Shown here piece by piece: positions 1,382-62,219 of a DNA stretch of 64,000 nt. Made by a program: the position numbers and the translations under genes. How positions within the stretch are numbered: the first letter of the stretch is position 1; the number at the start of each line of letters is the position of its first letter. This DNA is from an uncultured bacterium (GTDB lineage: Bacteria > Patescibacteriota > Saccharimonadia > UBA4664 > SCTI01). The notes beneath the pieces are model-generated. The model made no database searches. It was not told where the DNA came from and saw only the letters and a list, made by a program, of their open reading frames with translations. The stretch is taken from NCBI GenBank assembly GCA_963721685.1, contig CAVRJJ010000002.1:8848-72847 (forward strand), written 5' to 3'.

Positions 1382-4757
<3,376 letters not shown>

Positions 4758-5201: not shown

Positions 5202-7200
<1,999 letters not shown>

Positions 7201-7867: not shown

Positions 7868-7897
7868 TCTGCCAGGTTTGCCGCTGGCCTTTTTTAT

Positions 7898-7974: not shown

Positions 7975-8008
7975 GGAATTATACCCGTTTATTTGGTACA
8001 ATAAGCTT

Positions 8009-8871: not shown

Positions 8872-8877
8872 CCCGAA

Positions 8878-9420: not shown

Positions 9421-9424
9421 ACAG

Positions 9425-9901: not shown

Positions 9902-9934
9902 AAACTGAAGTATACCACCTCAACCGTTTCCACT

Positions 9935-9962
9935 AAAAAACCGCCCATTTCAGGCGGCGTTT
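9935..9962 (-). terminator. Candidate rho-independent terminator downstream of the 16S rRNA
   Basis: The minus strand reads aaaacgCCGCCtgaaatgGGCGGtttttt: a 5-bp GC stem followed by six U residues, ~165 nt downstream of the 16S 3' end. This supports the 16S being a stand-alone transcription unit. Confidence 0.45.
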
Positions 9963-10124
9963 TAGTATTGAAATCTTGGTAGTGCAGTGTAGAGCCATAC
10001 ATCTTCGACCTAGAAGTACCGCAGCTGATTCACGCGAGCACTTGCAGCAAGCTACAAAGCTCTAACGTGACCAGTCTGGCCATAGGTCAACGCCTATGGA
10101 ACGTGTTACCACGTCGTTCTCCCT

Positions 10125-11730
<1,606 letters not shown>

Positions 11731-11940
11731 AAGATGGAATGGAAGTTCCATCTGTAAAGTTTGAACTGGTGATCAAGTAGGGATTTCTGCCCGAAGGCTT
11801 ACGTCCCAACGTTGACGTTCTTAGTCTTTATAGTGCAAAACCGAAGTTCCACACTTTCATTTTCTCAAAGTAAATGATGGTTACACTGCACTACCAAAAT
11901 TTCAACGTCCACTCTCGAAAATCTCCCAGAAAAAAATAGC

Positions 11941-49100: not shown

Positions 49101-50519
49101 CGTGGCTCCGCTCATATTTGCTTCTAACGTGAAATCATTACCACTATATGCCCCCGTGTCGCTGATTGGTTGAACAATTACCCAGGTATTGGTAGTTTGG
49201 TCATATTTTATGGGGAAGCTATAGTTCTTGCTTACTGAGAAGCCGCCATTAGGCACGGTAACGGATGCTTCAAAGCTTCCGGCTCCGTTTGACAGCGCAT
49301 AGGTCCCAATGTCGACTTCAGTCCCGACAACAGTTGGCATTGTACGCGTTAAGTTGGTGGTGAATGAATTAGTTGTTGTAATATTGGCAATGTTTAAAAG
49401 ATTTCCTGAAGCATCAATGCGCTGCGTACCAGCTGAAGCGCCAGTGTTAATTCCGGTAGTCGCGTTAAAAGTGGCCGCCCTTCCTGTGCCGTCGATATTA
49501 AAGCTCGCGGATGTCTGCGGACTGGCGTTTTGGTTCTGGATATAGCTGCCAGAGCTAGCTGCAGCAGTACAACCTGTTGAAGTACATACGCTCGTACCCC
49601 CAATGGTCAAAGCTGTTGTAGAAAGTGAGGTGTTGGCACCGGCTTTTAAGCTGACGCTGGCATTGACGCTGCCGGTTACCTGAAGAATGTCACCACCTGA
49701 AAGTGGTACCACGCCGATCCCAATTTTGGTGTTGGTAGTATCGGCGATAAAGAGATTGCCAGCACCAGAGGTATTTTGAATTTGGAAGGCGGTAGCGCTG
49801 GTACGGTTAATAGCTTGGTCACCCAGAGTGAAGGTGTTGGCGGCGTCGCGCCGGGCGTAGAGATCTCCATCTACCCCGTCAAGCTCATCGGCGTTAAAGG
49901 CATAGGGTGAAGCGGCGATTGGCTGGCGCGGGGTGAAGGGCCCTTCGGTAAAGACCGCGCAGCCGTTGGTGGCGCAGGTGGCGGTGGCCGGAGTGGGCAG
50001 CTCCACTTCAACGTAGAGTGAGATTTGGGTGAAATCAAAGGTGGAAAGCGAGGTTAAGGTGCCAAACTGCACGGAGAACAACCCGTTGGTCACCTGAATC
50101 CGATTATCGGTGCCGGTCCTGGTGTAATCTTCCTGGAACAGGTTGGTGCCTCCGCTCGGGGCACTCATGATCCTAAACTTGATGTTATACAAACCATCAG
50201 CCAGTGTGTTGCCGGCAGCGTTGGTGAGCCGACCCTGGAAGTTAATCTTGTAGGGAATAGTTGAAGCGGCGTCGGCCGGCGGAGACAACAGCGGAACCGT
50301 GGCGCTAACGGCTAGCCCTAAGATCAATACAACTATGGCAGCAATAGCCGGTTTCTTGGTTAAAAGAAGCTTACGCAGCCGCATGAACACATTTTTTCGA
50401 TACCCCAAAGCACCCGACCGGGTCGGGTTCATTGGTAACGGAATATTATGACTTCCTGAAGATTGCTTCTGGTAGTTACCGTTCAAATTGCCTATTGTCC
50501 TCTTTTGTATTTGCCTCAC
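43194..50519 (-). CDS. Giant (2441 aa) cell-surface repeat protein: N-terminal signal/anchor, tail-fibre-like beta-rich modules, 7 LVIVD repeats, two arrays of 8 x 38-aa Asp-box/BNR-like repeats, tail-fibre-like C-terminus
   Basis: - Signal-anchor: …MRLRKLLLTKKPAIAAIVVLILGLAVSATVPLLSPPADA.
- A ~130-aa module (…SGGTLSGGNVSGGTLTASAVNSLNVSGTAISGTGALTVAAGGTNTNISVDGNGTGQVLVGG…) is duplicated exactly.
- LVIVD-type blades: YAYV.N…L.IYDI.NP..PVL.G.V…G..P..L.VQGRYAYV, seven copies.
- Sixteen copies of W.SVTYGNG.FVAVA..G.GNRVMTSPDGINWTIRTSAA.N, arranged as 2 x 8 with each array ending GNRVMTSGKTELTV. The TSPDGINWT core resembles the Asp-box S-x-D-x-G-x-x-W. Confidence 0.75.
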   Translation of the reverse strand: MRQIQKRTIGNLNGNYQKQSSGSHNIPLPMNPTRSGALGYRKNVFMRLRKLLLTKKPAIAAIVVLILGLAVSATVPLLSPPADAASTIPYKINFQGRLTNAAGNTLADGLYNIKFRIMSAPSGGTNLFQEDYTRTGTDNRIQVTNGLFSVQFGTLTSLSTFDFTQISLYVEVELPTPATATCATNGCAVFTEGPFTPRQPIAASPYAFNADELDGVDGDLYARRDAANTFTLGDQAINRTSATAFQIQNTSGAGNLFIADTTNTKIGIGVVPLSGGDILQVTGSVNASVSLKAGANTSLSTTALTIGGTSVCTSTGCTAAASSGSYIQNQNASPQTSASFNIDGTGRAATFNATTGINTGASAGTQRIDASGNLLNIANITTTNSFTTNLTRTMPTVVGTEVDIGTYALSNGAGSFEASVTVPNGGFSVSKNYSFPIKYDQTTNTWVIVQPISDTGAYSGNDFTLEANMSGATLSLRLRRSAGTTAGTASIVIKHDGIAADVFTPSTATSAVAAPTTYLSSSIFTQAAGAASIQGSLTTTGTINSATISGGTFSGGNVSGGTLTASAVNSLNVSGTAISGTGALTVAAGGTNTNISVDGNGTGQVLVGGTSTGDILLGGGFAGSGCTLTNATGALQCASTMTVGSNTSLSTTTLTIGGVGVCTSAGCTASGATGLAKNAVDTSSFAVTAAGNLYTFTNSSSAVASGVLSLVNGTNTNSTLRVTASGNPSAGQALIFASNTNASPTGNLLDLQSGSSPTSVFSVTAAGNLVASGTIDGASLSGGTLSGGNVSGGTLTASAVNSLNVSGTAISGTGALTVAAGGTNTNISVDGNGTGQVLVGGTSTGDILLGGGFAGSGCTLTNATGALQCASTMTVGSNTSLSTTTLTIGGVGVCTSAGCTGTTTLQQAYTADADSADATLALTSADGNLIFQNPSSGGITSGAVLKVDQLSTGAVEGLRIESAGSGNLLTVRDTTATARDVLTIANGGSTTFRNQTDSTSAFQVQNAAAGVNIFNVDTTNSRASIGAVGTAAGQFYVSGKINGLTAVGTVAVGAGLQVARSIFTQGRYAYVANDDAASLSIYDTSNPAAPVLAGTVSTVANPTDVYVQDRYAYVLSNSILGIYDVSNPASPNATGQVTVPSGARGLYVQGRYVYVVGTSDVLTVYDIGNPAAPVLTGTVSTGLDPFDLIIQGRYAYVINNSSSTLTIYDIGSPSRPVLAGSVGVGTAPNGLAVQGRYAYVLNGSTDNTLGVYDIKNPTSPTFVTNVSVGDVLTSVVVQGRYLYASSTGGVYTYDISNPASPVLLAQDTSIASTQDISVQGRYLYNVAGAFNPTMKIYDIGGAYIQQLETGSIETNTLRVNRNVSIGGDASIQGGLSVSGSALFTGSLSAATLSVGGVELSKGIDWTSRNSAADNDWKSVTYGNGLFVAIADNGTGNRVMTSPDGINWTIRTSAADNGWYAVTYGNGLFVAVAYSGSGNLVMTSPDGINWTIRTSAANNEWVSVTYGNGLFVAVAQTGTGNRVMTSPDGINWTIRTSAANNSWRSVTYGNGLFVAVAYSGSGNRVMTSPDGINWTIRTSAADNNWYSVTYGNGLFVAVSSSGTGNRVMTSPNGTTWTIRTSASDASWDSVTYGNGLFVAVAYDGIVSQVMTSPDGINWTSRTSPTTNAWRSVTYGNGLFVAVSEDGTGNRVMTSGKTELTVVPANNTYQGGITVRGDLISDNLITAGANWTSRTSAPDNEWRSVAYGNGVFVAVAATGTGNRVMTSPDGVNWTSRTSAADDNWTTVAYGNGIFVAISGNAGAPMTSPDGITWTLRTTAASLTWRSVTYGNGMFVAVASSGTGNRVMTSPDGINWTSRTSAADNDWYSVTYGNGMFVAVAITGTGNRVMTSTNGTSWTIRTSAADNAWNSVTYGNGMFVAVASSGTGNRVMTSPDGISWTIRTSSANNGWLGVTYGNGLFVAVSNDGTGNRVMTSPDGINWAIRTSAADNSWDGIAYGNGMFVAVAITGTGNRVMTSGKTELTVTSYNNTFQGGTTVYGASLFKSDANSATGFQVQNAAGNGLLVVDTTSGTVKVTLGNTASTNAVCSSLANATGPTAGTAYELRDCNAAPAADYAEDYPVAPGIGYGDIVVTGTTMVNTYDTTDGNIDWGKLKGQVTQLVKSSSPYQVNTVGIVSDNHGDFTSAGHNIKPEDNPMPVALNGRVPVNIAVSSEPIQAGDYLTTSSEPGKATKATQSGFVIGKALGSWDPNSGETSVIVFVEPGYYNGPSITSVIQNGGMASLSGLSVSGTADFAELNVSGTATITTLTVTGSATINGDLVVLGLTQLQDLQVDGHIISGGDTPTVEVLAASGTSATVVVDGNDTSGTITLVAGSSNLTAGHLVKITFSKPFGKVPRVVLSGQDGLTLDAKIFPHSKSLTDFMLKTDQVVLPNTTYTLDYIILE
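47819..48166. repeat. Copy 1 of a ~347-bp perfect intragenic direct repeat inside the giant gene
   Basis: The sequence gtacatccagcactcgtacacaccccaactcccccaatggttagggttgttgtagaaagtgaggtgtttgagccgacggtcatggtgctggc…gagacgtttccgcc recurs at 48515. The plus-strand ORFs 47809.. and 48445.. in the six-frame track share a 113-aa identical segment, which gives the repeat extent. Confidence 0.85.
48515..48862. repeat. Copy 2 of the ~347-bp perfect direct repeat (696-bp period)
   Basis: As above. The two copies diverge immediately after …gagacgtttccgcc. Confidence 0.85.
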
Positions 50520-50622: not shown

Positions 50623-51501
50623 TTATTTTTTGTGTCGTTTTTTACCTTTGCGAAGCCAATAAAAATAGGTTGCGATCATAATGAGCAGCATCGCGAGCAC
50701 AAACCGCCAATAGCCGGTAACCGCGAAGACATAGGCGGTTTTTGATTTGCTGGGGCTGGTAGTTGAATCAATAACCTTGACCGGTACAATGCCCAAGAAA
50801 CTCCCTTTCCTGTCTACTTGGATAACGCGGCTATTTTGTGGCAGCACCAATGGCCCGCGCACCCTGGCTGGCTTACCGAAAAAGCCGGTTTTTAGCTGGA
50901 GCTTAGGGTTAAACGCGATCGGCTGGGAACCGCTGGCAGTATTTTCATACTCAACTTTGCCGGCAATGCCATTCCCTAAAGCCACAAACGGCAGGTGCAT
51001 CCTGCTCACCCGCCCATCCTTAGTCCCGCCCCCGCCAATATCCAGAATAAACAAGGTGCCTACCCTGGCCAAAGCCGCCACCTGCGCTCCGCTTCCACCC
51101 GACTTAGCGGGCATGGTAGTAAAAAATAAGGCTCCGTAGACCCCGCCGCGCGGCAGCTTATTAGGGTCGATGGTAAATGCCACCCGGATAGCTTCGCGCG
51201 GGCCAAGCTCAAATTCTGAAACATCGGTAGTGATGCCGGCACGCAACGCTTCACTCGGGGAAAAAGCTAAGTTGCCGTCATTATCAATCTGCTGGAATGC
51301 CTCCACGCTCGATCTGAGCGTTAAAGTGCTGGTGGTGGGGTTGGAGACATCAACATGCCCAGATTTTTTGGTACCCAGGGGAATCGATTCCTGATACTGC
51401 AGGGGGGCTATCTTGAGGGCTATGGGCGCGGGGGCAGCCGCGGTGCCAGTACCCCCGATGCCCAAAGTGATCACCAGAATGGTAATAAGACGCTTAATCA
51501 T
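50623..51501 (-). CDS. Cell-surface protein with signal peptide, beta-sandwich-like body and a C-terminal TM anchor with basic tail (DUF916/DUF3324-like topology)
   Basis: - N-terminal signal peptide: MIKRLITILVITLGIGGTGTAAA.
- Body: …IAPLQYQESIPLGTKKSGHVDVSNPTTSTLTL….
- C-terminal anchor: WRFVLAMLLIMIATYFYWL-RKGKKRHKK.
Its stop overlaps the start of the next gene by 4 nt. Confidence 0.5.
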   Translation of the reverse strand: MIKRLITILVITLGIGGTGTAAAPAPIALKIAPLQYQESIPLGTKKSGHVDVSNPTTSTLTLRSSVEAFQQIDNDGNLAFSPSEALRAGITTDVSEFELGPREAIRVAFTIDPNKLPRGGVYGALFFTTMPAKSGGSGAQVAALARVGTLFILDIGGGGTKDGRVSRMHLPFVALGNGIAGKVEYENTASGSQPIAFNPKLQLKTGFFGKPARVRGPLVLPQNSRVIQVDRKGSFLGIVPVKVIDSTTSPSKSKTAYVFAVTGYWRFVLAMLLIMIATYFYWLRKGKKRHKK

Positions 51502-52202
51502 GGCTTGGTGGTGGCGGTAAAGGTCACGTTATTGGTATAATTACCGGCTTTCTGGCTGCTGGCAGTATCGAGGCGAAACTGCATGGTGGTGACATCGCTA
51601 GCTCCGCCCGAAAAGCCGTTCTTGGTGTGGAATGTGGTAGCGGCGCCTGGAATCGCGGCGTACTTGTAATTAGGGTTTGTCCCCCATTTTATGTCAACAC
51701 TGGTGCCGGAGGTGATGGTAAAGCCAAGCCCCTGGGTTGTTCCTTCAACCCACAACGCCGGGGCGGCGATGGCGGCAGCAATGGCGGCGATGGTGGTAGT
51801 AGTGTCGGTGTGGGTAAGGTTATTGTTCTGGTTAATCGCTAAGTCGTATCCTGGAGCGTCGGTATAGACAGTGGACTGTATCGTGGCGTTTTGGGAAGTT
51901 CCAGGCACAACCGAAGGAATTGATACGGTGCCGGTACTAAGCGTAAGCTGGACCGCCTGCTCCAGCTGCGCAACATAGCCTTGGGTGAGCTTGTAACTGG
52001 TACTTGTTCCCGAACCGACAGCCGCCTCACCCCCGGAATCGACTAGCTTATAGCTTGTGGAGCTACCTTGCCCTCCAAAATTATTAGCAACGTTCGGATC
52101 CAGCCGGTAGCTAGGGCTTGTTAATACTCCCGCCCCAACCGCGGTTGGTATAACCGCAAGTGCCATAACAGCTGCTATTCGTATGTGCCCACGCGTCAAC
52201 AT
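51498..52202 (-). CDS. Small secreted surface protein, WxL-domain-like (C-terminal …AGNYTNNVTFTATTKP)
   Basis: Signal peptide (IAAVMALAVIPTAVGAG), a Thr/Ser/Asn-rich beta body, an internal ALWVEGTTQGLGFT motif and the C-terminal motif AGNYTNNVTFTATTKP. This resembles the WxL-protein C-terminal consensus A-G-T-Y-T-G-T-V-T-W-T-L-x-D-A-P as recalled from memory. Confidence 0.45.
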   Translation of the reverse strand: MLTRGHIRIAAVMALAVIPTAVGAGVLTSPSYRLDPNVANNFGGQGSSTSYKLVDSGGEAAVGSGTSTSYKLTQGYVAQLEQAVQLTLSTGTVSIPSVVPGTSQNATIQSTVYTDAPGYDLAINQNNNLTHTDTTTTIAAIAAAIAAPALWVEGTTQGLGFTITSGTSVDIKWGTNPNYKYAAIPGAATTFHTKNGFSGGASDVTTMQFRLDTASSQKAGNYTNNVTFTATTKP

Positions 52203-52251
52203 CTCTTATAATTCTAACGCTTTGCCTGCAATCTTTCCACCCCTCACGCCT

Positions 52252-54462
52252 TTACCCGGCGGAGGCACGAAGATGAAAGCCAAAGTAGGCCGCGTGCTTC
52301 GTTATGGTTACCGGCTGCCGCAGTTTTTCGCCGGACGGAAGGGCTACCTCAATATTATATTCTCCCGGTGCCGCGAATAAAGTGTATTTACCGTTCGAGG
52401 CCGTGGGGCTCGACTGGACCAACTGCTCGCTTCCTTTAGCCAGGAGGTTCACATTTAACCCGGCGTAACCGGTTCCGTGGGAATCAACCACCCTCCCCCA
52501 TTTTATGCGTTGCTGAAAAACCAGCAGGTGCAAGCTTAAGAGTACCGTCAGCGAAAGGGTAGCGCATATAAGCGCGTTTATTACCGAAAAATGGTTTAAC
52601 ACCAGGTAAATGCTTAATGACCATCCATATCCCAGTACCGCCCATCCCAAGACCCCCAGATCTAGATCGATAATCCACTGTCCCCAGGTACGCACCACCG
52701 GCTGAGGGGTCATTTCTACAACGAAACCGGCGTTTTCATTAGCGACCGGAGCGCTAGCCGCCACCATGGCATACCCGGGATGCCTCGCCCCAATAACCTG
52801 CTTTTCGGCTACTTTAAGCTTAAACCGGCCGCGAAAACCACTAACCGCGTAATGACGCGTTCCTTCGGTATATACCAGCGCCCAAGCAATAGGCTTGCCT
52901 GTTAAGCGGTTAATTACCGTCCCCTTTACTTTACGGCCGCTGTTAAAGACCATGATGAGCCGCCGCCCTAGCGTGCGTACGAGCAGCCAAAGCTCTTCAA
53001 GGCCCACTAGGCCCCGCGTGACTAACGTCGCAAAAATAGCGGCCAGCAGTGCCACGCCCGTCAGTACGGTTGATGTCGCCGTAGACTTAAGGGCCCGAAC
53101 GTAGGTTTCACCAATTACCGATCCCACTCCTAGTACCACGCCGGCTAAGTTCCCAATATTATTCCACTGGAAGCGGGCCGCGCCGGCAATGCCCGCGTTG
53201 GGATTTTTGTAGAAGACATTGACGGGCACGGAAAGACTCTCCCCCGCTTCGGTTTCAACAGTAGCAATCAAGGCGTTGCTACCCTCTTCAAGGATCACCG
53301 AAACCGAGAATGTCCCGTCGCTGGCAACCAGGACTTTGGCTAATTGTTCCCCGTTGCTAAGGATGCGCACCAGTAATCCTGGAGTAGCCGTACCGCTCAC
53401 GGTAACATTAGGCCGGGTAACGGTAGTATGGTCTTTGGGGTTAAGGATTTTGGGCGGCAATGGCGGCGGCGGTCGGAACGTTACAATAACATCAGACGAG
53501 GGTCCGCTGGTTCGGTTAAACAGGGTGGCTGTGGCATAGATTGTGTTGGGCCCTGCTTCAAGGGCAACATTCAGCGTTAACGTGCCGTCGGGCGGGGTAA
53601 TGCCTGAGGCTACTTCTGCCCCGTTGCGGTACAGGCGGACGGTAGATCCGGCGGCGGACGCCACGGTAACGTCGGTACTCGCCTCCGAGGTGCTGCTGCC
53701 TGATGACGGAGCGATAATGGTTGGAGGTGACGGAGCCGGCAAAATAGTACTACCTGGAGGCGAATACGGGGGCTGCGTAATCACCGGCGGCAATGAGGGC
53801 GGCGGGATATATGAGATTACCACGGGAGCGCTGGGACCACTAACTCCCGCGGCGTTGGCGGCAGTCGCGTACAGGGTATTTAAACCAAGAGCAAGCCCCG
53901 CCGCGGTGCTAAAGTTACCGTTAATATCTACCGTGGTGGTGGCTACCAGCAAGTTATTCCGGAACAGCGCGATTATCGCCCCGGGTTCGGATGTCCCGCT
54001 CACCCCAATTGAAGCTGTCTGCACAACAGCGCCATTGCCGGGTGAGGTAATGATTGGCGATCCAGGCGGGTTTACGTTGCGCACAATGGTGATGGTTGGG
54101 CTGTCTGCTTCATTGCCACAGTTATCGCTGGCATGAGCCATAATCTGGTTATTACCGGCGCTCAATGGAACATTCGCGCTATAACTTCCATCACCGGCTA
54201 CAACCATGCTTGCCACAGGGAAGCCATTCACCTTAATTTCCAGGTCGGCAAATGGCTGGGCGGTACCGCTGATACTGGCCGTTGCACTAGCGGTGGGTGT
54301 AGGAGTGCTGGTTGTAATGCCAACCGGCGCAAACAGCGTTGAACAGACATTTACATTGATAATCGAGGTACCCCCAGCGGCAAGTAGGCTGCTGGGAACA
54401 AATAAGGCTAGAGCCAGTAATGCCTGCAGCCAGCGTCGGACGGCACTAACGCCGCCGGACAT
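52252..54462 (-). CDS. Secreted/polytopic membrane protein with four bacterial Ig-like domains, a multi-TM segment and two carboxypeptidase-regulatory-like beta domains
   Basis: - Signal peptide: ALLALALFVPSSLLAA.
- Four ~95-aa Big-like repeats (ISGTAQPFADLEIKVNGFPVA…DGSYSANVPLSAGNNQIMAHASDNCGNEA; VSGTSEPGAIIALFRNNLLVA…; …VRLYRNGAEVAS…; VSGTATPGLLVRILSNGEQLAKV…DGTFSVSVILEEGSNALIATVE).
- Then ≥5 hydrophobic helices.
- CarbopepD_reg-like segments: KVKGTVINRLTGKPIAWALVY…; RVVDSHGTGYAGLNVNLLAK…GKYTLFAAPGEYNIEV. Confidence 0.55.
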   Translation of the reverse strand: MSGGVSAVRRWLQALLALALFVPSSLLAAGGTSIINVNVCSTLFAPVGITTSTPTPTASATASISGTAQPFADLEIKVNGFPVASMVVAGDGSYSANVPLSAGNNQIMAHASDNCGNEADSPTITIVRNVNPPGSPIITSPGNGAVVQTASIGVSGTSEPGAIIALFRNNLLVATTTVDINGNFSTAAGLALGLNTLYATAANAAGVSGPSAPVVISYIPPPSLPPVITQPPYSPPGSTILPAPSPPTIIAPSSGSSTSEASTDVTVASAAGSTVRLYRNGAEVASGITPPDGTLTLNVALEAGPNTIYATATLFNRTSGPSSDVIVTFRPPPPLPPKILNPKDHTTVTRPNVTVSGTATPGLLVRILSNGEQLAKVLVASDGTFSVSVILEEGSNALIATVETEAGESLSVPVNVFYKNPNAGIAGAARFQWNNIGNLAGVVLGVGSVIGETYVRALKSTATSTVLTGVALLAAIFATLVTRGLVGLEELWLLVRTLGRRLIMVFNSGRKVKGTVINRLTGKPIAWALVYTEGTRHYAVSGFRGRFKLKVAEKQVIGARHPGYAMVAASAPVANENAGFVVEMTPQPVVRTWGQWIIDLDLGVLGWAVLGYGWSLSIYLVLNHFSVINALICATLSLTVLLSLHLLVFQQRIKWGRVVDSHGTGYAGLNVNLLAKGSEQLVQSSPTASNGKYTLFAAPGEYNIEVALPSGEKLRQPVTITKHAAYFGFHLRASAG

Positions 54463-55333
54463 TTTTGGGCCTACTGAAATACGCGTACGCGCCTAAGGCA
54501 CCAACAGCCAGAAGCATTAGCAGAAAGGCGGTGGAAGAAAGAACCAGCACATGGCGGGTTGGAAGCTTTTCCGTCTTATCGAAGTAATGCACGGTTCCGC
54601 CTAGCTTAAAGAATCCAAAAGCCGGTGCCTTATCCCACGTTAAAGCAATCCTGCGAGGGGCATTTGGCAAAACTACGAGGTTATTATTGAAACGGTATTT
54701 TTCGTTCCCAAAAAAATCCGTAATTACGTATTTTACATCGGCAAAATAATGGACATTACCGGTGTTGACCATGCGAACGCTGGCTTCAACGGGCGCCCCA
54801 TTTTGCCACATCTTGGCGTTGAAGCTATCGAGCTTACCTACTCTTTCCAAGACACCGTCAACGGTAACGTAAAGGTGCGATCCTACCCGTTTGATGCTGG
54901 CGATTCCGATGGAATTGGGCTTACCTTTAGTGGAAACAAACAGCGCGGCATAGTGGGTGCCCGGGGCGGCATTTTGCGGCACCGTAATGGTGTATCCAAT
55001 ATTTGTTCTCTCTTGCGGTTTTAACGTAAAAGTTGTTTTTTCAAACTGCACCCAGCTTTCCAGCTGCTCCGGGTTGGGGGTGTTGGCATAATTACGCTCA
55101 TACTCTTCATTTTTTATGGTGGCTCCGCCAGCGCTGGTGGTGTATTCGCTTAGTTCGGTACCGTCATTTTTCACCGTTAGCTTACCGGAAATCCTCTGCC
55201 CCGCCTTAACGCTATGCTCGGTATAGGTAGGCGAAACGGCCGCTCCGGTACCAAGTTCAGCCGCCAGTGCTTGCATAGGCACCACAAGCAGCACCAGCGC
55301 CAGAAACAGATACAAAAACTTCGTTACTCTCAT
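54446..55333 (-). CDS. DUF916/DUF3324-like cell-surface protein (CscA-like): signal peptide, two beta-sandwich domains, C-terminal TM anchor with RRR tail
   Basis: - Signal peptide: MRVTKFLYLFLALVLLVVPMQALA.
- …AAVSPTYTEHSVKAGQRISGKLTVKNDGTE…, resembling the DUF916 pattern x-V-x-P-x…K-x-G-Q…V-x-V-x-N.
- C-terminus: VLVLSSTAFLLMLLAVGALGAYAYF-SRPKNVRRR. Confidence 0.5.
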   Translation of the reverse strand: MRVTKFLYLFLALVLLVVPMQALAAELGTGAAVSPTYTEHSVKAGQRISGKLTVKNDGTELSEYTTSAGGATIKNEEYERNYANTPNPEQLESWVQFEKTTFTLKPQERTNIGYTITVPQNAAPGTHYAALFVSTKGKPNSIGIASIKRVGSHLYVTVDGVLERVGKLDSFNAKMWQNGAPVEASVRMVNTGNVHYFADVKYVITDFFGNEKYRFNNNLVVLPNAPRRIALTWDKAPAFGFFKLGGTVHYFDKTEKLPTRHVLVLSSTAFLLMLLAVGALGAYAYFSRPKNVRRR

Positions 55334-55413
55334 TACTAAGATAGTAGCACAAGCATAAGAATTGATTAAATAAAACGTACCGCTTAAGGGCGGTGCGTTT
55401 TATGGATTAAATT

Positions 55414-56022
55414 TTATAGGGCAAGAGCGGTATAAAGCACGGTACCGGTGTAGGTGCCGTTGGGCTTAGTGATATCAGCTTTAGCGCTGTACCACACGGT
55501 GTGGGTATTCCCCGCGTACGGGCCAGTAGCCCGGGCGCTTAGCAACTGAGGTGCGGCGTTTTGTGGAACCAAAGAAAAGGTACGGGATGTACAGTTGGCT
55601 CCGGTAGTTGAGGTGGGGCCAGCCCCAAAGGAACCATGGCTATCTTCGCGCCATCCCCAGGCATTGGTTGGTAATACTGCTGGCGATGCAAAGGTAGCAG
55701 TGGCGTTAGCCAGGGTGTTGGCACCGTTGGCCAAGGTATTTTGGGCAGCTGTGGTGTGAGCCACATTGTTGTCTTGAATAGATAACGAATACCCATTGGC
55801 GGCATTGGTGGTAACGGTTACTGTATCACTAGCGCAAACTTGGTCGGGGCTGGCCGTAGGCGCTAGGTTAATAGTTACGGGCGAGGTGGTTGTAAAGGTT
55901 GAAATCGAACTGGCGATCACCGCGTTCACAACCGTGGTAGCGGTGGCTGCCGAAGCAGCCAAAGGAGCAAGCACGATAGCTGCTGCCCCTAAGGTTAATA
56001 CGGTTTTCCTAGGAACTCTCAT
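55414..56022 (-). CDS. Small secreted WxL-domain-like surface protein (paralogue 1 of a tandem pair)
   Basis: Signal peptide MRVPRKTVLTLGAAAIVLAPLAASA, a Thr/Ala/Asn-rich body, an internal NAWGWREDSHG and a C-terminal KPNGTYTGTVLYTALAL (compare the WxL C-terminal motif GTYTGTVTWTL). It is ~90% identical to 56158..56784. Confidence 0.5.
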   Translation of the reverse strand: MRVPRKTVLTLGAAAIVLAPLAASAATATTVVNAVIASSISTFTTTSPVTINLAPTASPDQVCASDTVTVTTNAANGYSLSIQDNNVAHTTAAQNTLANGANTLANATATFASPAVLPTNAWGWREDSHGSFGAGPTSTTGANCTSRTFSLVPQNAAPQLLSARATGPYAGNTHTVWYSAKADITKPNGTYTGTVLYTALAL

Positions 56023-56157
56023 TTCATGACCCTTTCGACGTTTTCATTATTAGAGGCCACTTCACTTCTTATATAAGACCATAACACAAGCATAAGCATT
56101 AACCTAACAAAAAGCCCGGCTATCCGGGCTTTTTTGCCTTACCGAGAATAAATTACT

Positions 56158-56784
56158 TTACAGGGCGAGGGCCGTGTAAAGTACCGTAGCGGTGTAAGTA
56201 CCGTTCGGCTTGGTACTGTCAGCCTTAGCACTGTACCACACGGTGTGGGTATTCCCCGCGTACGGGCCAGTAGCCCGGGCGCTTAGCAACTGAGGAGCGG
56301 CGTTTTGAGGAACTAATGAGAATGTCGCCGCGGTACAACCTGCGCCGGTGGTGGTGGTAGGACCAGCACCAAAGGTACCATGGCTATCTTCGCGCCATCC
56401 CCAGGAGTTAAGGGGCAATGCTGCTGGTGATGCAAAGGTAGCAGTGGCGTTAGCCAGGGTATTTGCTCCATTAGCCAGGGTGTTCATAGCGGCGGTAGTG
56501 TGAGCTACGTTATTGTCTTGAATCGACAATGAATACCCGTTGGCGGCGTTGGTGCTAACCGTTACCGTATCGCTGGCACAAACTTGGTCTGGGCTGGCCG
56601 TAGGCGCTAGGTTAATAGTTACGGGCGAGGTGGTTGTAAAGGTTGAGATCGAACTGGCGATCACCGCGTTCACAACCGTGGTAGCGGTGGCTGCCGATGC
56701 CGCCAACGGTGCAAACACTATGGCCGCCGCTCCCAGGGTTAATGCTGTTCTTCTTGGCACTTTCATTTTGTTTTTTTCCTTCAT
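56158..56784 (-). CDS. Small secreted WxL-domain-like surface protein (paralogue 2; the likely true start is the MKVPRR Met at ~56766)
   Basis: The architecture matches paralogue 1 (…NSWGWREDSHGTFGAG…KPNGTYTATVLYTALAL). Long identical DNA stretches confirm a tandem duplication, for example cacggtgtgggtattccccgcgtacgggccagtagcccgggcgcttagcaactgagg. Confidence 0.5.
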   Translation of the reverse strand: MKEKNKMKVPRRTALTLGAAAIVFAPLAASAATATTVVNAVIASSISTFTTTSPVTINLAPTASPDQVCASDTVTVSTNAANGYSLSIQDNNVAHTTAAMNTLANGANTLANATATFASPAALPLNSWGWREDSHGTFGAGPTTTTGAGCTAATFSLVPQNAAPQLLSARATGPYAGNTHTVWYSAKADSTKPNGTYTATVLYTALAL

Positions 56785-56904: not shown

Positions 56905-59900
56905 CTATTGCGGTGCGAAGTAGTTAAACTCATACAACTGGCCGGAAGCCGGAGCGCTATTGAAGGTCACATTGAGAGTTGTGGTAGTGGCACTCATATG
57001 GGCAGACATATTGGCGCTGACTGTATTGGTAGGACTAAATACAATTTTTGGTGCTGCGCCAAAGGCAGTATTTAAGGTGACACTACATTGGTCTCCGCTG
57101 GATATGCCTGTCCCCCCGGGGGTAATTTGAATCGTGCCGGCGGTATCTGTCCCTGAAACCACGCACGCCCCAGTGGTTCCCGCTGCTGCGGCGGCCGTGC
57201 CAGTGGGGCTGCCACCGCCAGTAATGAGGTGCCCATTGACCGTTAAATTACCTGAAACCGCTAATTGAGCCACAGTCACCGTCATATTGGAGGTATCGGC
57301 GATAAACAGTGGGTTATTATCTTGGTCTTGGATTTGGAACGCGGTGGTGGAATCGCTTGTGTTACGGAATAATTGGTCGTTCCCGGCAAAGACTTGGCTA
57401 TTGCGTGTCAGTAGGGCTACGCTGCTTGAGAGCACACTGTTATTAACTGTTCCGGTGGACAGGTTGCTGGCGTTAAGCCCGCTTAATCCGGAGCCAACAC
57501 CGGTAATAGTCCCAGTGCCAGCATTAATATTGGTGTTGTCGGTATCAATCCCCGCCTCCACATTTAAGGCACCTGTAATAGTTGCTATTCCGTTAACGGT
57601 TAGGGTCGTCGCGCCACCGTCTTGGGAGAGAATGGAGTTAGTTATATTTTGCGAGTTGGAAAACAACGGAATAAAGTTAGCGGTCGCCCCGCTTGAAGTA
57701 ACAGTCCCGCTTGCACAGCCCTGGAAGGTGGGGTTACTACTGGGCCCATTGGAAATCAAACACTGCCCTGCCGATCCCGGAGTTGTAACGCTAACCGGGC
57801 CACTACCATTGCCATAAAGGATGCCGTTAGCGGTAAAACTCGTAACGCCTGTGCCGCCACTGGCAACCGGCAGCGTCCCCGTAAAAGTAATATTTCCGGC
57901 GTTACTAAGCGCGATGTTACCTGACGCTGATACGGCAACCGTCCCGCTCTGGTTTGGTATTACAATCGTGGCGTTCCCGGCGGCGCTTTGGAAGATAAGG
58001 TTGGATGAAAATAAACCGCTGTAGGAGTTGAGGCTAATACTTGTTCCCTGCACTGAGACACCGTTACTGGTAGAGCCTATGGTTAGGCTGCTGGTTGGGG
58101 CAATGGTATTGGTGGTCAAGAACCCTAGCGTGGCGCTAGCAAACGTTGGTGTAGACCCAGTTGCCAAATTTTGCGGCAATGACAGCGTAATGGTAGTGCC
58201 AACGGTCCCCACGCTTACCTGGTCAGCCGTACCGGCCAGAGTTAGCGCTCCAGTTGCCAAGTTAACCGACTGCACACCTGCCACAGCGCTTAAACAGTTT
58301 CCGCTATCCAAACAGACCTCACCACTATCATCCGGCAATGTGATTGACTGGTTGGCGGTCGGTGTGGCAAAGCCTAGTGTTGTAGAAAAAGAGCCATTTG
58401 TGACACTAAACGTTGAGTTATCGGATCCTTGTAGGATGAGTGTTTCACCTGAAGTACCAACAGTTAGGTCTGAGCCATCGCCAACAATGGCATCGGCGGC
58501 TAATGTGCCCGCCACGGTTAAAACTGCGCCCGATTCACTAGCGATGGAATCGGTTAAGGTATTTGTAATAGTGTCGAATTTAACCAGATTACCTGCCGTT
58601 TGGCTAGTACCGCTAGATAGGCCGCTACTCCCCGGACACGAACCAAAGGCCGCCCCGGTTACTGTAGACATCAAGCACTCCCCCGGTGCTATGGCCGCGC
58701 CGCCGCTGGCATCGAGCTGGACCAGCTCACCATCGCCATTAAAGGTGTTCCCCTGGGTAGTTATGCCAGCGCCCAAGCTAACCACACCGCCAGTTACACT
58801 AAAATCAGCACTATCAAACTGGGCAATCCCTTTAGCTGATGTAGAAGCGTCATCAATAGTGATGGTAGTTGCGTTTATTGCGCTCGAATTATTGAGCGTA
58901 ATAATGCCGCTAATGCCATTAACCGAGGCGACGCCGCCGCCGGCTGATTCAATCGTGATAGTTCCACCCGGCACGTCATTGACAATATTAATCCCACTGC
59001 CCGCCAGCACAGTCACTGAATTGGTAATGCCGTTGACATCGGTTACACCGGATCCGCCGCCGCTACCATCACTGGTAAGGCAGGTTAAGCAGGTTATGTC
59101 CCCAAGAGCATTGAGTGAAATTGCACCTGAAGCCGAAACCGCCACTAAACCGGAAGCGTCGGGAATCACTATGCTATTTACGCCGGTGGGGGCGTCAAAG
59201 CTAAGCGTTGTACTATTTACTCCGCTTGTCCCACTCAGCGTTGTGGTGGACGCAAATCCCTGGAGTGTCAGTGACTGGCTGGTACTGCCCACGGTAAGTG
59301 CCGCGGAGGGATTAATGCTGGTAAGCGCGGTTAAGCTGGTTATATCGGCGTTAGCCCCCAGCTCGGCAGCTCCCAAATTTGTTCGCGCCCCTAAGGCCGT
59401 GGTGGCACCTGTGCCGCCTTTCAGCAACGAGACCGTACCCAAACTCACCGCTCCGGCGGTAACCGAGAAATCGGTGGCGCTGAAGGAAGCGATTCCCTTA
59501 GCCAGGGTTGTAGCGTTATCAATCGTAATAGCCGTCCCCACACCTGAACTGTTGTTGATGGTTAAGGCCCCAACCAAGCCCTCCACGCTTGTCACGCCAG
59601 AACCGGTTGTCGCGTAGCCACAGTTGTTTGTCGATAGACAAACAGTGCCGCTATCGTTGGGGAGGGAGATTGTTCGGTTTGCCGTGGGCGGGATGAAGTT
59701 AAATGTTGTGGTAAAGGCTCCGGACCGGGCACTCAGGGAGGTCGCGGCGTTTCCCTGCAAGGTAAGGCTTTGGCTGGTTGAGCCAATCGCTAAGGCTGCT
59801 CCAGGGGTAATGGCGGTCAGCCCGGTAAGGGAGGTGATGTCGCTGTTTAGCCCACTCGCGGCCGCGCCAAGGTTGGTGCGCGCCCCACTAGCGGTTGCAG

Positions 59901-61095
59901 CGTTCGTACCACCTTTAGCTATTGGCACCACATTTAGGCTGACCGCCCCGCCTGCTAGAAGAAAATCAGTTGCGCTGAAGGAGGCTATGCCTTTCGTTGT
60001 GGTTGTCGCATCATCAATCGTAATAGTTGTGCCCACCGCGGTGGCGTTGGCAATATCCAACGCTCCGCTTACGCCATTAAGGCTGGTTACCGAAGCCGTA
60101 CCGCTGCAAGAGCCAAATACCGGGGCGGTAGCCGTACTTACCAAGCACAATCCCGGTCCGGCAGCAGCGACAGTACTGATAGGGCCGGAACCGTTGCCCA
60201 GCAATACCCCATTGGCCGTTAAACTGTTAACCCCGGTTCCTCCGCTGGCAACCGCTAAGGCCGTCCCCAGGTTCAGTCCGTTAAAGGTGGGCGACGAGCT
60301 GGGGGCGATGCTTTGAGGCAGACTTAGTACAATATTTCCGGTGGACTGATTAACGCTGATTTGCCCGGGACTCCCACTTAATGCCGTGACGCCGGTGTTT
60401 GCGATGGTTAACCCATTAATCGCGATACCCCCACCGGCGCTAAAACTCAGGGCGCCGGTTTGGCCCTGTACGCTGAGCACTGCGCTGGTTGGAGCGGTTG
60501 AACTTAACACACCGCCAGCTACACTTAAACCGCTGCCTACCGCGATATCGCCGCTTAAACCGCCAATTGAATTAACCCGCTGACTGTTATCGGCGAGATT
60601 AATGAAGCTGGTGCCGTTATAGTAATACAACTGGCGGTCGGCCTGGGACAAATAGAGCTGTCCTACGATAGGCGCGGCCGGCTGTTCGCCCGGGGTTATC
60701 ACCGCCGAATCGTTAATTCGCAGCTGCCCGTTAATTTGTAGCTGTTGACTTTTATCCAAGCTCAGCTCACCGTTACGGGCGAACTCACCGAGCGACAAGC
60801 TGGTAACTTTATAGCTTGAGGCGCTTGATGCCGGGTCGTCACTTCCCCGGCCCTGGGTGAGCACCACGAAAGCGGCTATTGCCAGAAAGATGAGAAGAGT
60901 TATAACTCCGGCAATAATGGTAGCGGAATGGCCAAAAAAGCGATGATGCCGACCCGATGGCGGCACATCCGGCCCGGACCCCAGCGGGTTTAAGCTTGTT
61001 ACCGGCTGGGGGGTAGCAATGCTGCTCGCTACTCCTGAGGCCAGGTTGACTGGATCAACCGAAGACGAGGGCGATATTGAATCCCTTGGCATCAT
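56905..61095 (-). CDS. Giant (1396 aa) membrane-anchored tail-fibre-like surface protein with repeated K-G-G-T-G-A-T-x-A-x-G-A-R-T-N-L-G-A-A motifs
   Basis: - Signal-anchor: HSATIIAGVITLLIFLAIAAFVVL.
- Three copies of the module …TKGIASFSATDF…AGGAVSL…IAKGGTNAATASGARTNLGAA… (second copy LLKGGTGATTALGARTNLGAA), as seen in phage tail-fibre and related fibrous proteins.
- The module recurs: FQIQDQDNNPLFIADTSNMTV.
- Gly/Ser/Thr-rich beta composition throughout. Confidence 0.65.
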   Translation of the reverse strand: MMPRDSISPSSSVDPVNLASGVASSIATPQPVTSLNPLGSGPDVPPSGRHHRFFGHSATIIAGVITLLIFLAIAAFVVLTQGRGSDDPASSASSYKVTSLSLGEFARNGELSLDKSQQLQINGQLRINDSAVITPGEQPAAPIVGQLYLSQADRQLYYYNGTSFINLADNSQRVNSIGGLSGDIAVGSGLSVAGGVLSSTAPTSAVLSVQGQTGALSFSAGGGIAINGLTIANTGVTALSGSPGQISVNQSTGNIVLSLPQSIAPSSSPTFNGLNLGTALAVASGGTGVNSLTANGVLLGNGSGPISTVAAAGPGLCLVSTATAPVFGSCSGTASVTSLNGVSGALDIANATAVGTTITIDDATTTTKGIASFSATDFLLAGGAVSLNVVPIAKGGTNAATASGARTNLGAAASGLNSDITSLTGLTAITPGAALAIGSTSQSLTLQGNAATSLSARSGAFTTTFNFIPPTANRTISLPNDSGTVCLSTNNCGYATTGSGVTSVEGLVGALTINNSSGVGTAITIDNATTLAKGIASFSATDFSVTAGAVSLGTVSLLKGGTGATTALGARTNLGAAELGANADITSLTALTSINPSAALTVGSTSQSLTLQGFASTTTLSGTSGVNSTTLSFDAPTGVNSIVIPDASGLVAVSASGAISLNALGDITCLTCLTSDGSGGGSGVTDVNGITNSVTVLAGSGINIVNDVPGGTITIESAGGGVASVNGISGIITLNNSSAINATTITIDDASTSAKGIAQFDSADFSVTGGVVSLGAGITTQGNTFNGDGELVQLDASGGAAIAPGECLMSTVTGAAFGSCPGSSGLSSGTSQTAGNLVKFDTITNTLTDSIASESGAVLTVAGTLAADAIVGDGSDLTVGTSGETLILQGSDNSTFSVTNGSFSTTLGFATPTANQSITLPDDSGEVCLDSGNCLSAVAGVQSVNLATGALTLAGTADQVSVGTVGTTITLSLPQNLATGSTPTFASATLGFLTTNTIAPTSSLTIGSTSNGVSVQGTSISLNSYSGLFSSNLIFQSAAGNATIVIPNQSGTVAVSASGNIALSNAGNITFTGTLPVASGGTGVTSFTANGILYGNGSGPVSVTTPGSAGQCLISNGPSSNPTFQGCASGTVTSSGATANFIPLFSNSQNITNSILSQDGGATTLTVNGIATITGALNVEAGIDTDNTNINAGTGTITGVGSGLSGLNASNLSTGTVNNSVLSSSVALLTRNSQVFAGNDQLFRNTSDSTTAFQIQDQDNNPLFIADTSNMTVTVAQLAVSGNLTVNGHLITGGGSPTGTAAAAAGTTGACVVSGTDTAGTIQITPGGTGISSGDQCSVTLNTAFGAAPKIVFSPTNTVSANMSAHMSATTTTLNVTFNSAPASGQLYEFNYFAPQ

Positions 61096-61238: not shown

Positions 61239-62063
61239 TTAGCCCGTAATCACCAAATATGAGGCGCCGCAGGCAACCAGCAAGATAACCAGCCCCGTGC
61301 CGAGAATTCGGGCAAGCGCGCGAAAGATGTGGGCTTTAGCCAACGGATTACGGCCAACGGCGATTAAGGTACTGCGAATCCCGGAAAATAAGATAAATCC
61401 AACGATGGCCAAGGCGACCAAAAGCAATCCCGTCGCCAGCAGAACCCGGATTATCGCTACCGGCTTACCGGCAATGACATCGGCAATTTTCTGTAAAAAT
61501 ATCGGATAAGGCGTTTTTTTCACTGGCGGAACGAAGTAAGCGACTTCAAGCACCACCGGCACCGTTGAAATCTGAACCGTCTTCTTGGAGCCGTCATGGG
61601 ATGTAAGGGTGGTTGTGGTGGTACCTACCGCCGGTGCGTCGGCTTCGGCCACCCCAATGCATTTACCCTCGGCTACGGCCTTCATGCCTACCCCCTTGAT
61701 GGGCGAAGCGGCAATTAAGTCTCCGGCTTTCACCCGACCGCCTAAATCTGAAACGATAGCGGTGGTCTTGCCGCTGGTGGCCACCTGTAGCTCATCGCTG
61801 GGGCTGGCTACCTCCAGGTTGGCGCTGCGGTTTGCCACCACAATGCCAATCAGCGCGTCAGACATTGTGGCATCTGCCGCGACAACTTGGCTCTGGTCAT
61901 CCTTGGATTGAGCTACCAGCGTTCCGGGAACAAGTTCCGAGCTGCCGCGGTAACCATGGCTAACAGCGGCAGCCAAAACCTGCAAAGGCAATGCTACCGC
62001 CAAAAGCAGTACAACGCCAATTAGAATTCTTGCCGCGAACTGCGTCCGAACTTGGGCAGCCAC
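61239..62063 (-). CDS. Hypothetical bitopic/polytopic membrane protein (N-terminal TM, extracytoplasmic SAF-like middle, C-terminal TM pair)
   Basis: The track ORF 61239..62213 begins inside tRNA-Pro. The plausible start is a GTG at ~62061 (…LEVKVAAQVRTQFAARILIGVVLLLAVALP…), preceded by GGAGG and a TATAAT-like box at ~62087-62092 on the minus strand. Confidence 0.45.
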   Translation of the reverse strand: MAAQVRTQFAARILIGVVLLLAVALPLQVLAAAVSHGYRGSSELVPGTLVAQSKDDQSQVVAADATMSDALIGIVVANRSANLEVASPSDELQVATSGKTTAIVSDLGGRVKAGDLIAASPIKGVGMKAVAEGKCIGVAEADAPAVGTTTTTLTSHDGSKKTVQISTVPVVLEVAYFVPPVKKTPYPIFLQKIADVIAGKPVAIIRVLLATGLLLVALAIVGFILFSGIRSTLIAVGRNPLAKAHIFRALARILGTGLVILLVACGASYLVITG

Positions 62064-62143
62064 TTTCACCTCCAGGCACTGTTCATAGGGGTTTATTATA
62101 CCAGTTACGCTTTCGGTTTGGCTAGCGGTAAAAAAATAACTGC

Positions 62144-62219
62144 TGGTCGGGGTGAGAGGACTTGAACCTCCGGCCTCAGCAACCCGAATGCTGCGCGCTA
62201 CCAACTGCGCCACACCCCG
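62144..62219 (-). tRNA. tRNA-Pro (anticodon CGG)
   Basis: The reverse complement reads CGGGGTG-TG-GCGC-AGTTGGTA-GCGC-G-CAGCA-TTCGGGT-TGCTG-AGGCC-GGAGG-TTCAAGT-CCTCT-CACCCCG-A-CCA. The C1:G72 pair is typical of bacterial tRNA-Pro, all stems pair, and the anticodon loop is UU-CGG-GU. Confidence 0.9.

Follow-up and report, generated by a model that had tools for sequence, protein, structure and literature searches.

Phage tail-fibre modules in a giant, probably membrane-anchored surface protein of a Saccharimonadia bacterium

What is a giant protein with the motifs of phage tail fibres doing behind a membrane anchor in the chromosome of a bacterium of the candidate phyla radiation (CPR)? The question is raised by a 64,000-nucleotide stretch of DNA from an uncultured Saccharimonadia bacterium (assembly GCA_963721685.1, contig CAVRJJ010000002.1, positions 8,848 to 72,847), here called the window. 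On its minus strand, at 56905..61095, lies a complete open reading frame (ORF) with an ATG start, predicted to encode a membrane-anchored, tail-fibre-like protein of 1396 amino acids (aa), called the fibre protein below. An identical protein, P0001, is held in public data on an 89,350-bp contig. An initial annotation of the window, made from the DNA letters, had given the coordinates, strand and length of the ORF exactly, and had proposed a receptor-binding fibre recruited for cell-cell attachment. The analysis reported here makes it very likely that the product is a phage-fibre-like surface fibre anchored in the membrane of the cell that produces it.

Shaft modules and membrane anchor

Two motifs recur in the protein. 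There are two copies of the full motif GGT[GN]A[TA]T..GAR.NLG, 165 aa apart (aa 395 and 560), and three of the motif TKGIA.F..DF, at aa 368, 533 and 755, with spacings of 165 and 222 aa. The third TKGIA copy (aa 755) is followed by QGNTFNGDGELVQLD instead of the GGTGA motif, and two degenerate copies, 'VASGGTGV.S.TANG' at aa 282 and 1077, lack the AR.NLG part. The initial annotation had described three modules at a spacing of about 190 aa. The number is right for TKGIA.F..DF and wrong for the full motif, of which there are only two copies, and the value of 190 is the mean of the spacings 165 and 222.

The region containing the first copies of both motifs (modules A1, B1 and C1, described below) was compared by tblastn with 50,697 phage records. 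Matches were obtained in 48 records, at 53-72% identity over 38-66 residues and with E values down to 4e-7. Among the matches listed, almost all are in genes annotated as tail fibres, from Klebsiella T7-like, Acinetobacter and Pantoea phages and from a T5-like L-shaped fibre. The gp17-like fibre of Klebsiella phage AttikonH2, for instance, has a Phage_T7_tail N-domain and a shaft that includes LPVAKGGTGAADAGTARTNLGAAASGSNGDITALTGL. A 17-row profile of module B was searched against the Protein Data Bank (PDB) and matched the SU10 long tail fibre gp12 (7Z47, E 2e-19), the PhiM1 tail fibre gp47 (8VBX, E 2.5e-13) and the R1/R2 pyocin fibres (6CL5, 6CL6 and 6CT8, E 0.0025-0.04). The pyocin copy of the motif, SGILPLARGGLGANTAAGARNNIGA, comes after the HxH iron site, at residues ~570-594 in the distal half of the Shaft. 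In the pyocin Shaft, which lies just before the lectin-like C-terminal domain, three interdigitated chains build up helix-plus-turn units that are very short (PMC6116203).

Module A was found on 12 IMG/VR viral contigs, in proteins of 569-2346 aa, the TKGIA.F..DF segment reaching 76% identity over ~34 residues. When six of the viral proteins with module A were scanned against PHROG, five matched phage families, mostly of unassigned function or head decoration; baseplate-wedge or tail-fibre families were matched by two module-A viral proteins (L008 and L018). The A+B region of the fibre protein itself matched a PHROG tail-fibre family (phrog_11393, E 8e-7). In the PDB the module A profile gave chance matches only, to antibody heavy chains via GTTVTVSSAST. 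Judged by these alignments, modules A and B appear to be common to the 1396-aa protein and to phage tail-fibre and baseplate proteins, and the tail-fibre character that the initial annotation had ascribed to the motif is borne out by the 48 phage records and by the PDB-deposited SU10, PhiM1 and pyocin chains.

The repeats were detected with query pieces of 150 aa; self-BLAST of the whole protein gave the trivial match alone. With composition-based statistics, aa 354-488 and aa 519-654, each an A-B-C unit, aligned over 136 aa at 63% identity (E 5e-42). When the extracellular part was shuffled 20,000 times, the expected count for each sub-motif was 0.0002-0.003 and the full motif did not occur. 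The alignment and the absence of the motif from the shuffled sequences indicate that the repetition is genuine and not an artefact of low complexity. The motif is a specific tail-fibre module, repeated beyond chance, and not the generic low-complexity pattern of G, T and A for which it might have been mistaken.

Four module types, A, B, C and D, form the shaft of the protein as a mosaic; the coordinates that follow are all on the minus strand. The A modules were recognised by motif and internal alignment, the B modules by motif and by the phage and PDB matches, and the C modules and D2 as internal repeats. Module D1 (aa 252-330, 60106..60342) has the pattern PQSIA..S.PTF...VASGGTGV.S.TANG.L.GNGSGP...C...C, contains Cys317-Cys330 and aligns with aa 1058-1127 at 47% identity (E 6e-13). 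It is followed by module A1 (aa 336-387, 59935..60090), with S.NG..GAL.I.N....GT.ITIDDATT..KGIASFSATDF, by module B1 (aa 390-430, 59806..59928), which is the phage tail-fibre shaft motif KGGTNAATASGARTNLGAAASGLNSDITSLTGL, and by module C1 (aa 431-497, 59605..59805), with AL.IGSTSQSLTLQG...PTAN.TI.LP..SGTVC....NC and Cys486-Cys492. C1 is repeated at aa 596-660, 874-936 and 998-1056 (E 2e-18 to 3e-8). The second A-B-C unit consists of A2 (aa 498-553, 59437..59604), B2 (aa 555-595, 59311..59433; KGGTGATTALGARTNLGAAELGANADITSLTAL) and C2 (aa 596-660, 59116..59310). Further out are A3 (aa 719-775, 58771..58941; KGIAQFDSADF), which has no B motif after it, C3 (aa 874-936, 58288..58476; Cys928-Cys934), C4 (aa 998-1056, 57928..58104) and D2 (aa 1058-1127, 57715..57924; VASGGTGVTSFTANG..., Cys1112-Cys1127).

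At its N-terminus the protein has an S/P-rich tail ending in RHHRFFGH (aa 1-56, 60928..61095), which, from its sequence and from the tails of homologues, is probably cytoplasmic. The sole transmembrane (TM) segment follows at aa 57-80 (60856..60927; Kyte-Doolittle peak 3.06), and no second segment of the 1396-aa protein rose above the threshold in the Kyte-Doolittle scan. The signal anchor postulated by the initial annotation was therefore recovered as this lone hydrophobic segment. An N-terminal hydrophobic segment is also found in 76 of 92 homologues, with a median start at residue 61 and a median tail of ~60 residues. From sequence, the fibre protein would be a type-II (N-in, C-out) single-pass membrane protein with ~1300 residues exposed outside the cell. 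Serine, threonine, glycine and alanine make up 52% of it. It has 14 cysteines, all of them extracellular and none in the membrane, which form seven short-range pairs (317/330, 486/492, 669/672, 807/820, 928/934, 1112/1127 and 1311/1337).

Distal tip and protein family

The C-terminal end of the fibre protein is a putative receptor-binding tip, proposed from structure prediction, Foldseek and homologues. AlphaFold2 (AF2) modelling of aa 1222-1396 with a 13-row alignment gave an all-beta sandwich for residues 1292-1396 (56908..57222), with a predicted local distance difference test score (pLDDT) of ~85-97 and the pair Cys1311-Cys1337; in the tip alignment, cysteine pairs occupy two alternative positions, which covary. 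A strand motif, 'S.DSTTAFQIQ....LF.ADT.N..V.V' (aa 1245-1291, 57223..57363), leads into the sandwich and was modelled with moderate confidence only (pLDDT 53-67). A Foldseek search of BFVD with the tip model found two proteins of uncultured Caudovirales (884 and 604 aa) with E values of 3e-10 and 2e-8 and 24-26% identity. The initial annotation had made its interpretation depend on structural similarity to fibre proteins; the similarity seen in these two matches is to viral proteins. The names of weaker BFVD entries include tail fibre, H-type lectin and gp53-like C-terminal domain. The putative tip fold is assigned through predicted viral structures only. The tip domain was found in 15 of the 92 homologues, and a word-indexed homologue search with the C-terminal domain gave just two weak matches.

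The initial annotation had also linked the fibre protein to a 2441-aa protein encoded nearby, through a shared FQIQ motif. The motif FQ[IV]Q is indeed in both, at aa 1253 of the fibre protein and at aa 245, 1002 and 2051 of the 2441-aa protein, which has the strand motif before the tip as well. The link is stronger than had been claimed because the two giants have a C-terminal domain in common: aa 1283-1371 align with aa 2327-2417 of the 2441-aa protein at 36% identity (E 6e-13).

The signature of the family is a conserved N-proximal domain (aa 95-250, 60346..60813), defined by alignment and profile, in which INGQLR.N.S...P...GQ.Y....N.L.YYNG is followed by VLSVQGQTG repeats. In an alignment of 19 diverse homologues, 15 columns of the domain are invariant. 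A HMMER search of 1.84 billion cluster representatives with the N-proximal profile gave 2300 at E<=1e-3, 756 at <=1e-10 and 271 at <=1e-30, the 2300 being representatives of clusters formed at 50% identity. The domain is nearly always at about residues 80-280, in proteins of up to 4635 aa. Against PHROG it gave weak matches, to N-terminal parts, with phrog_8309 (1e-6) and with the tail protein family phrog_6613 and the tail fibre family phrog_13229 (both ~1e-3). A tblastn search of phages with the N-domain and D-module region returned one match, an uncultured phage, and a search with a 6-row N-domain alignment returned three genome loci.

The homologues collected (n=93) are mostly giant proteins of Saccharimonadia, and nearly all the named ones come from Saccharimonadia, Saccharibacteria or Patescibacteria. 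The N-proximal domain is carried by 64 of 92. In the homologue set 64 B-type modules occur in 38 proteins, some of them as 40-residue tandem copies, and 115 A-type modules in 65 proteins. With an N-terminal TM segment, the conserved domain at about residues 80-280 and A/B/C/D-type modules after it, the 1396-aa protein appears by sequence to be a member of this family, a large and uncharacterised CPR family of giant N-anchored fibre proteins.

The distal ends of its relatives are diverse. P0043 ends in Peptidase_S74, which in endosialidases and tail fibres acts as an intramolecular trimerisation chaperone and is absent, according to Pfam, from the 1396-aa protein itself; P0070 has Phage Tail Collar and T4 Gp10_C domains, and P0039 a NosD/right-handed beta-helix. 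All three share the TM anchor and the N-proximal domain with the fibre protein. Kelch and CBM_4_9 domains were found in P0022 and P0084, respectively, neither of which matched the N-proximal domain in the profile scan. Taken together, the domain assignments suggest that the family keeps its shaft and swaps its distal ends among lectin-like sandwich, beta-helix, Kelch, CBM, tail-collar and S74 ends.

Genomic neighbourhood

The window contains bacterial 16S, 23S and 5S genes with a 16S-23S gap of ~5.4 kb, Phe- and Trp/Tyr-type tRNA synthetases, RmuC, an L,D-transpeptidase, a VirD4-like ATPase, PD-(D/E)XK and tRNA genes. The closest syntenic locus (L002) is in a metagenome-assembled genome of Candidatus Saccharimonadia, where identity is 64-72% for the flanking genes and 60% for residues 1-330 of the fibre. 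The rRNA and tRNA synthetase genes, this synteny and the taxonomy of the homologues establish that the region is chromosomal DNA of a CPR bacterium, as the initial annotation had assumed in describing a chromosomal locus with a signal anchor. It had also asked for flanking phage structural genes to be sought. A Pfam scan of 27 window ORFs (21-64 kb; 5.6-21 kb was left out) revealed no phage structural, baseplate, sheath or tail-assembly-chaperone protein.

Two other features of the window may be recorded. In the region 1072-11731 the arrangement of the rRNA genes is atypical: the 23S gene spans 3388 nt against a model of 2925 positions, implying insertions, and the 16S-23S interval has protein ORFs inside it and tRNA-Ile and tRNA-Ala on the opposite strand; such an arrangement is typical of CPR genomes. 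On the minus strand at 25189-29943 a 1584-aa protein combines an ATPase core (aa ~400-700) like that of the VirD4 coupling protein of type IV secretion systems with a C-terminal tail that is very long and rich in Pro and Ala.

Directly upstream of the fibre gene, at 61239-62066 on the minus strand, is a gene for a conserved membrane protein of ~276 aa; the ORF call reaches 62213 and overlaps tRNA-Pro (62144-62219). In this protein an N-terminal TM helix and an exo-domain of ~190 aa are followed by a C-terminal hairpin, 'GIRSTLIAVGRNPLAKAHIFRALARILGTG', which resembles the R-Q/N-P loop of the F-ATPase c subunit minus the carboxylate; the protein has no Pfam or PDB match. The neighbourhoods compared comprised six other fibre loci (L002-L007) and four pilin loci (L020-L023). 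A homologue of the upstream membrane protein is near the fibre genes in five of the six fibre loci (L002-L006) and is absent from L007; the window, L002 and L006 have the membrane protein gene immediately beside the fibre gene. The homologue is the first gene of an ATP synthase operon (b-like, delta, alpha, gamma, beta, epsilon) in L004 and L005; no a or c subunit genes are called in this operon, which ends right before the fibre. The spacing of homologue and fibre in L003 is the same as in L004 and L005, the intervening genes there being unexamined. No ATP synthase genes are present in the window itself. At 233-16846 of L006, a 1.7-Mb contig, two fibre-family genes of 2901 and 2281 aa lie in tandem with the homologue of the upstream membrane protein alone between them, a local expansion of paralogues.

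On its other side the fibre gene is the first of a co-directional run that ends with the 2441-aa giant, the genes overlapping or being separated by gaps of <=135 bp. Two pilin-like genes encoding ~205 aa each (56158-56784 and 55414-56022, minus strand, as is the whole run) are 92% identical. They are followed by a 295-aa fn3/WxLIP-like, chaperone-like protein with a C-terminal TM helix (54446-55333; domain scan), a 736-aa Ig-repeat, PamR-like protein (52252-54462), a 234-aa PamT-like protein (51498-52202), a second chaperone-like protein, of 292 aa (50623-51501), and the 2441-aa giant (43194-50519), in which a domain scan found LVIVD/beta-propeller repeats at aa 1059-1560. Four of these neighbours match three NCBIfam models for CPR Pam proteins: pilin_C in the two pilin-like genes (4-5e-4), PamR (9e-30) and PamT (2.6e-7). 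All of the Pam matches in the window are below the curated cut-offs, and PDB sequence searches with the pilin and the chaperone-like protein found nothing. From the model matches and gene order, 50623-56784 appears to be a divergent Pam-type pilus cluster. For the pilin family 333 matches were found. Loci L020-L023, on four long Saccharibacteria contigs, keep the order pilin, chaperone, PamT-like protein, second chaperone, and in L020 and L022 the last gene of the pilin cluster encodes a protein with the N-terminal domain (aa 42-250) of the 2441-aa giant; because this domain is conserved at that place, the giant may be the real pilus-linked adhesin.

In L021, at 7391-9462, two adjoining genes with the Mtd_N domain, which refers to the major tropism determinant of Bordetella phage BPP-1, are found beside the Saccharibacteria pilin cluster. 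The pair hints at a diversity-generating retroelement target beside the pilus.

The arrangement in the window raises the possibility that the fibre is an accessory of the adjacent Pam-type pilus, as an anchor, tip or co-adhesin, and works only with the downstream pilus. The fibre gene heads the tightly spaced run just described, four of its neighbours match Pam models, and its C-terminal domain recurs in the 2441-aa protein at the far end of the cluster. In addition, a 'tail fibre-like protein' has been reported to be consistently co-localised with the CPR pam operon and ATP synthase genes (Troman et al. 2026, bioRxiv 10.64898/2026.03.03.709456). That preprint gives the protein one sentence, with no sequence, architecture or function (10.64898/2026.03.03.709456). 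The two proteins are alike in being from CPR/Saccharimonadia and in their surroundings: the window fibre has the Pam-like cluster on one side and, on the other, a homologue of the first gene of the ATP synthase operon of relatives. The protein of the preprint, for which no accession is given, may belong to the present family.

Against a role as pilus accessory, the link between fibre and pilus, unlike that in the preprint, is not kept in the loci sampled here: no 1396-like fibre is within 10 kb of the pilins in L020-L023, and no pilin gene is within 10 kb of the fibre in L005-L007. The Pam matches of the neighbours fall short of the cut-offs, and the 1396-aa protein itself matches no NCBIfam Pam model at E<=0.01. 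The fibre also has a membrane anchor of its own and lacks the Ig-like donor-strand architecture of Pam subunits. There is a promoter-like site in the interval from the fibre gene to the first pilin gene, though such sites were no commoner in the promoter and terminator scan than in shuffled sequence, and the scan is for that reason uninformative on operon structure. It is therefore considered unlikely that the fibre works only as part of the pilus. As the pilin linkage is not kept in the loci sampled and the homologue of the upstream membrane protein recurs beside fibres, the neighbourhood of the fibre would be a loosely conserved one of 'surface and energy' genes, and the fibre is probably not an obligate Pam component.

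Proposed function and comparison with known fibres

A mechanism can be proposed for the fibre protein as follows. A cytoplasmic tail of ~56 residues and one TM helix would anchor it, with ~1300 residues projecting outwards, and the conserved N-proximal domain would probably sit at the cell envelope (wall or S-layer). Three chains probably intertwine into one fibre through the A/B/C/D shaft. The trimer is suggested by analogy with the pyocin Shaft, by the S74 domain of a relative and by the AF2 monomer model of the shaft: this model of aa 330-665 was poor (pLDDT 57), as expected for an obligate interdigitated oligomer, with which it is compatible without being proof. Scaled from the pyocin fibre (240 Å per 369 residues), the fibre would be ~50-100 nm long. 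The 105-residue, disulfide-bonded beta-sandwich tip would be held away from the cell and might bind a surface structure, probably a glycan, on a host bacterium or substrate, and such binding would contribute to epibiotic attachment. Recruitment for cell-cell attachment, as worded in the initial annotation, is a plausible extrapolation from sequence. A host-binding adhesin, taken as a claim by itself, has about an even chance of being correct; the combined reading, an anchored phage-fibre-like fibre used for binding to a host or surface, is on balance favoured.

Several results weigh against this interpretation. The 1396-aa protein itself has no Pfam or NCBIfam match; nothing useful was returned for the whole protein, the sole match being Sarcoglycan at E 0.15, which is chance, and phmmer with the whole protein against all PDB chains gave nothing relevant at E<=1. 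Only the B motif, of ~25-40 residues, has PDB-deposited relatives. Of these the pyocin matches are marginal, and SU10 gp12 was built for its first 90 residues only, leaving the matching region unresolved, so that the SU10 structure is uninformative for module B. For the tip, Foldseek against the PDB found nothing significant (best E 0.1; the non-significant list includes the R-pyocin fibre foot, AP22 gp54 and Helix pomatia agglutinin) and tblastn against cultured phages found no match. The poor monomer model of the shaft could equally reflect its shallow 20-row alignment, and the close cysteine pairs within modules would also fit monomeric beads that fold independently. Trimerisation is argued by analogy, and surface display of the protein is likewise a prediction.

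The fibre could instead be a general component of the envelope or surface coat, S-layer-like or a spacer, without specific host recognition. Its composition (S/T/G/A 52%) would suit such a role, as would the size of the family, with several paralogues per genome and two in tandem in L006, and the fact that the most conserved part is the cell-proximal domain and not the tip. The variable distal domains, however, are of types that bind or degrade carbohydrates (lectin-like sandwich, CBM_4_9, beta-helix, Kelch, tail collar), a mark of receptor-binding proteins and not of coats that form a lattice, and Pfam detected no S-layer, SLH or cell-wall-binding domains in the 1396-aa protein. A mere coat protein consequently seems improbable.

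Much the same small chance is given to a monomeric 'beads-on-a-string' adhesin, in which the modules fold singly like those of Ig-repeat adhesins and the phage motif is a short convergent or borrowed peptide. The seven short-range cysteine pairs inside single modules (C, D and tip) suggest locally stabilised units, and the tip was modelled confidently as a monomer, but the tips of the trimeric MAT fibres of Bdellovibrio bacteriovorus and of phage fibres likewise fold per chain, with no strand swapping (PMC10769870). The shaft was not predicted to fold as a monomer, the counterpart of the B motif in R pyocin is part of an interdigitated trimer, and one member of the family carries the S74 trimerisation chaperone. 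A tail-fibre gene left in the chromosome by a prophage, tailocin or contractile injection system, although it would account for modules A and B, was discarded in view of the gene context and is highly improbable, since the Pfam-scanned window ORFs include no phage structural genes, a TM anchor takes the place of a baseplate or adaptor domain, and the same anchored architecture is found in hundreds of CPR proteins in diverse chromosomal contexts.

A membrane-anchored fibre with a phage-type shaft would be of interest for the biology of CPR bacteria. A part in the recognition and holding of hosts by the ultrasmall CPR epibionts has been ascribed to type IV pili, Pam pili and unnamed 'adhesins' (PMC10633639, PMC12206443, 10.64898/2026.03.03.709456); a Southlakia transposon-sequencing (Tn-seq) paper refers only to 'multiple adhesins', with other domains, and in the literature searched the sole mention of proteins such as the present one is the single sentence of the Pam preprint (10.64898/2026.03.03.709456). 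Cell-anchored fibres with phage receptor-binding modules and exchangeable lectin, beta-helix and propeller tips are concrete and testable candidates for determinants of host range. If the proposal is correct, epibionts recognise their hosts with phage-type hardware and exchange modules with phages, tail-fibre modules are shared on a large scale between phages and cellular surface proteins, and host ranges could be read from the fibre tips and re-engineered through them. As a tentative generalisation, to which somewhat less than an even chance is given, Saccharibacteria and related CPR bacteria may carry at least 2300 clusters of self-anchored, trimeric, phage-module fibres whose swappable tips determine the hosts that can be attached to. 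The N-proximal profile and the A and B modules could in any case be used to annotate thousands of giant 'hypothetical' proteins.

With phage and tailocin fibres the 1396-aa protein shares the GGTGA..A..AR.NLG(A) module of 25-45 residues, at up to 53-72% identity, and the overall logic of a shaft with a distal receptor-binding domain. It differs in that those fibres are parts of virions or tailocins, docked by an N-terminal baseplate or adaptor domain, whereas the 1396-aa protein would be held in the producer's own membrane. No docking domain such as Phage_T7_tail was found in it by Pfam, its N-terminus being the 56-aa tail and TM helix; there are no phage genes around it; it is much longer; and, in contrast to the pyocin, it has no HxH iron site beside the motif. 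With neither docking domain nor phage context, it falls outside the class of virion tail fibres.

The closest parallel is provided by the MAT fibres of B. bacteriovorus, which have an invariant N-domain after the signal peptide, form meandering trimers and are divided into S74 and non-S74 subfamilies with diverse swapped tips, one member binding prey surface glycans (Caulton et al. 2024, PMC10769870). In both cases phage-tail-fibre-like fibres are borne by the cells of a bacterium that lives off other bacteria. Both have an invariant N-terminal domain after the export signal, a long repetitive shaft, chimeric and swappable C-terminal tips that include lectin types, subfamilies with and without S74 (here S74 is in the relative P0043) and many paralogues per genome. 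The N-proximal domain is analogous to the MAT N-domain, and the solved MAT fragments (Bd2133, Bd1334, Bd3182 and others) gave no sequence match by phmmer against all PDB chains at E<=1. The CPR protein has an uncleaved-looking TM anchor in a monoderm-type cell, whereas MAT proteins have a signal peptide and an unknown attachment to the outer surface, and its shaft is built of A/B/C/D modules with GGTGA..AR.NLG motifs where that of MAT consists of a beta-helix with a capping-loop motif.

Phage fibres and Bdellovibrio MAT fibres were already known. What would be new, given that the fibre protein lies outside the virion tail-fibre class, has no match to the solved MAT fragments and is scarcely mentioned in the literature searched, is a membrane-anchored version of phage-derived adhesive fibres in monoderm CPR bacteria. 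Such a protein would be the monoderm, membrane-anchored counterpart of the MAT fibres and would show their principle at work in the CPR as well as in a Gram-negative predator. The conserved proximal end, the modular shaft and the apparently exchangeable, sugar-binding or sugar-degrading tips correspond, by analogy, to the design of both phage receptor-binding proteins and MAT fibres.

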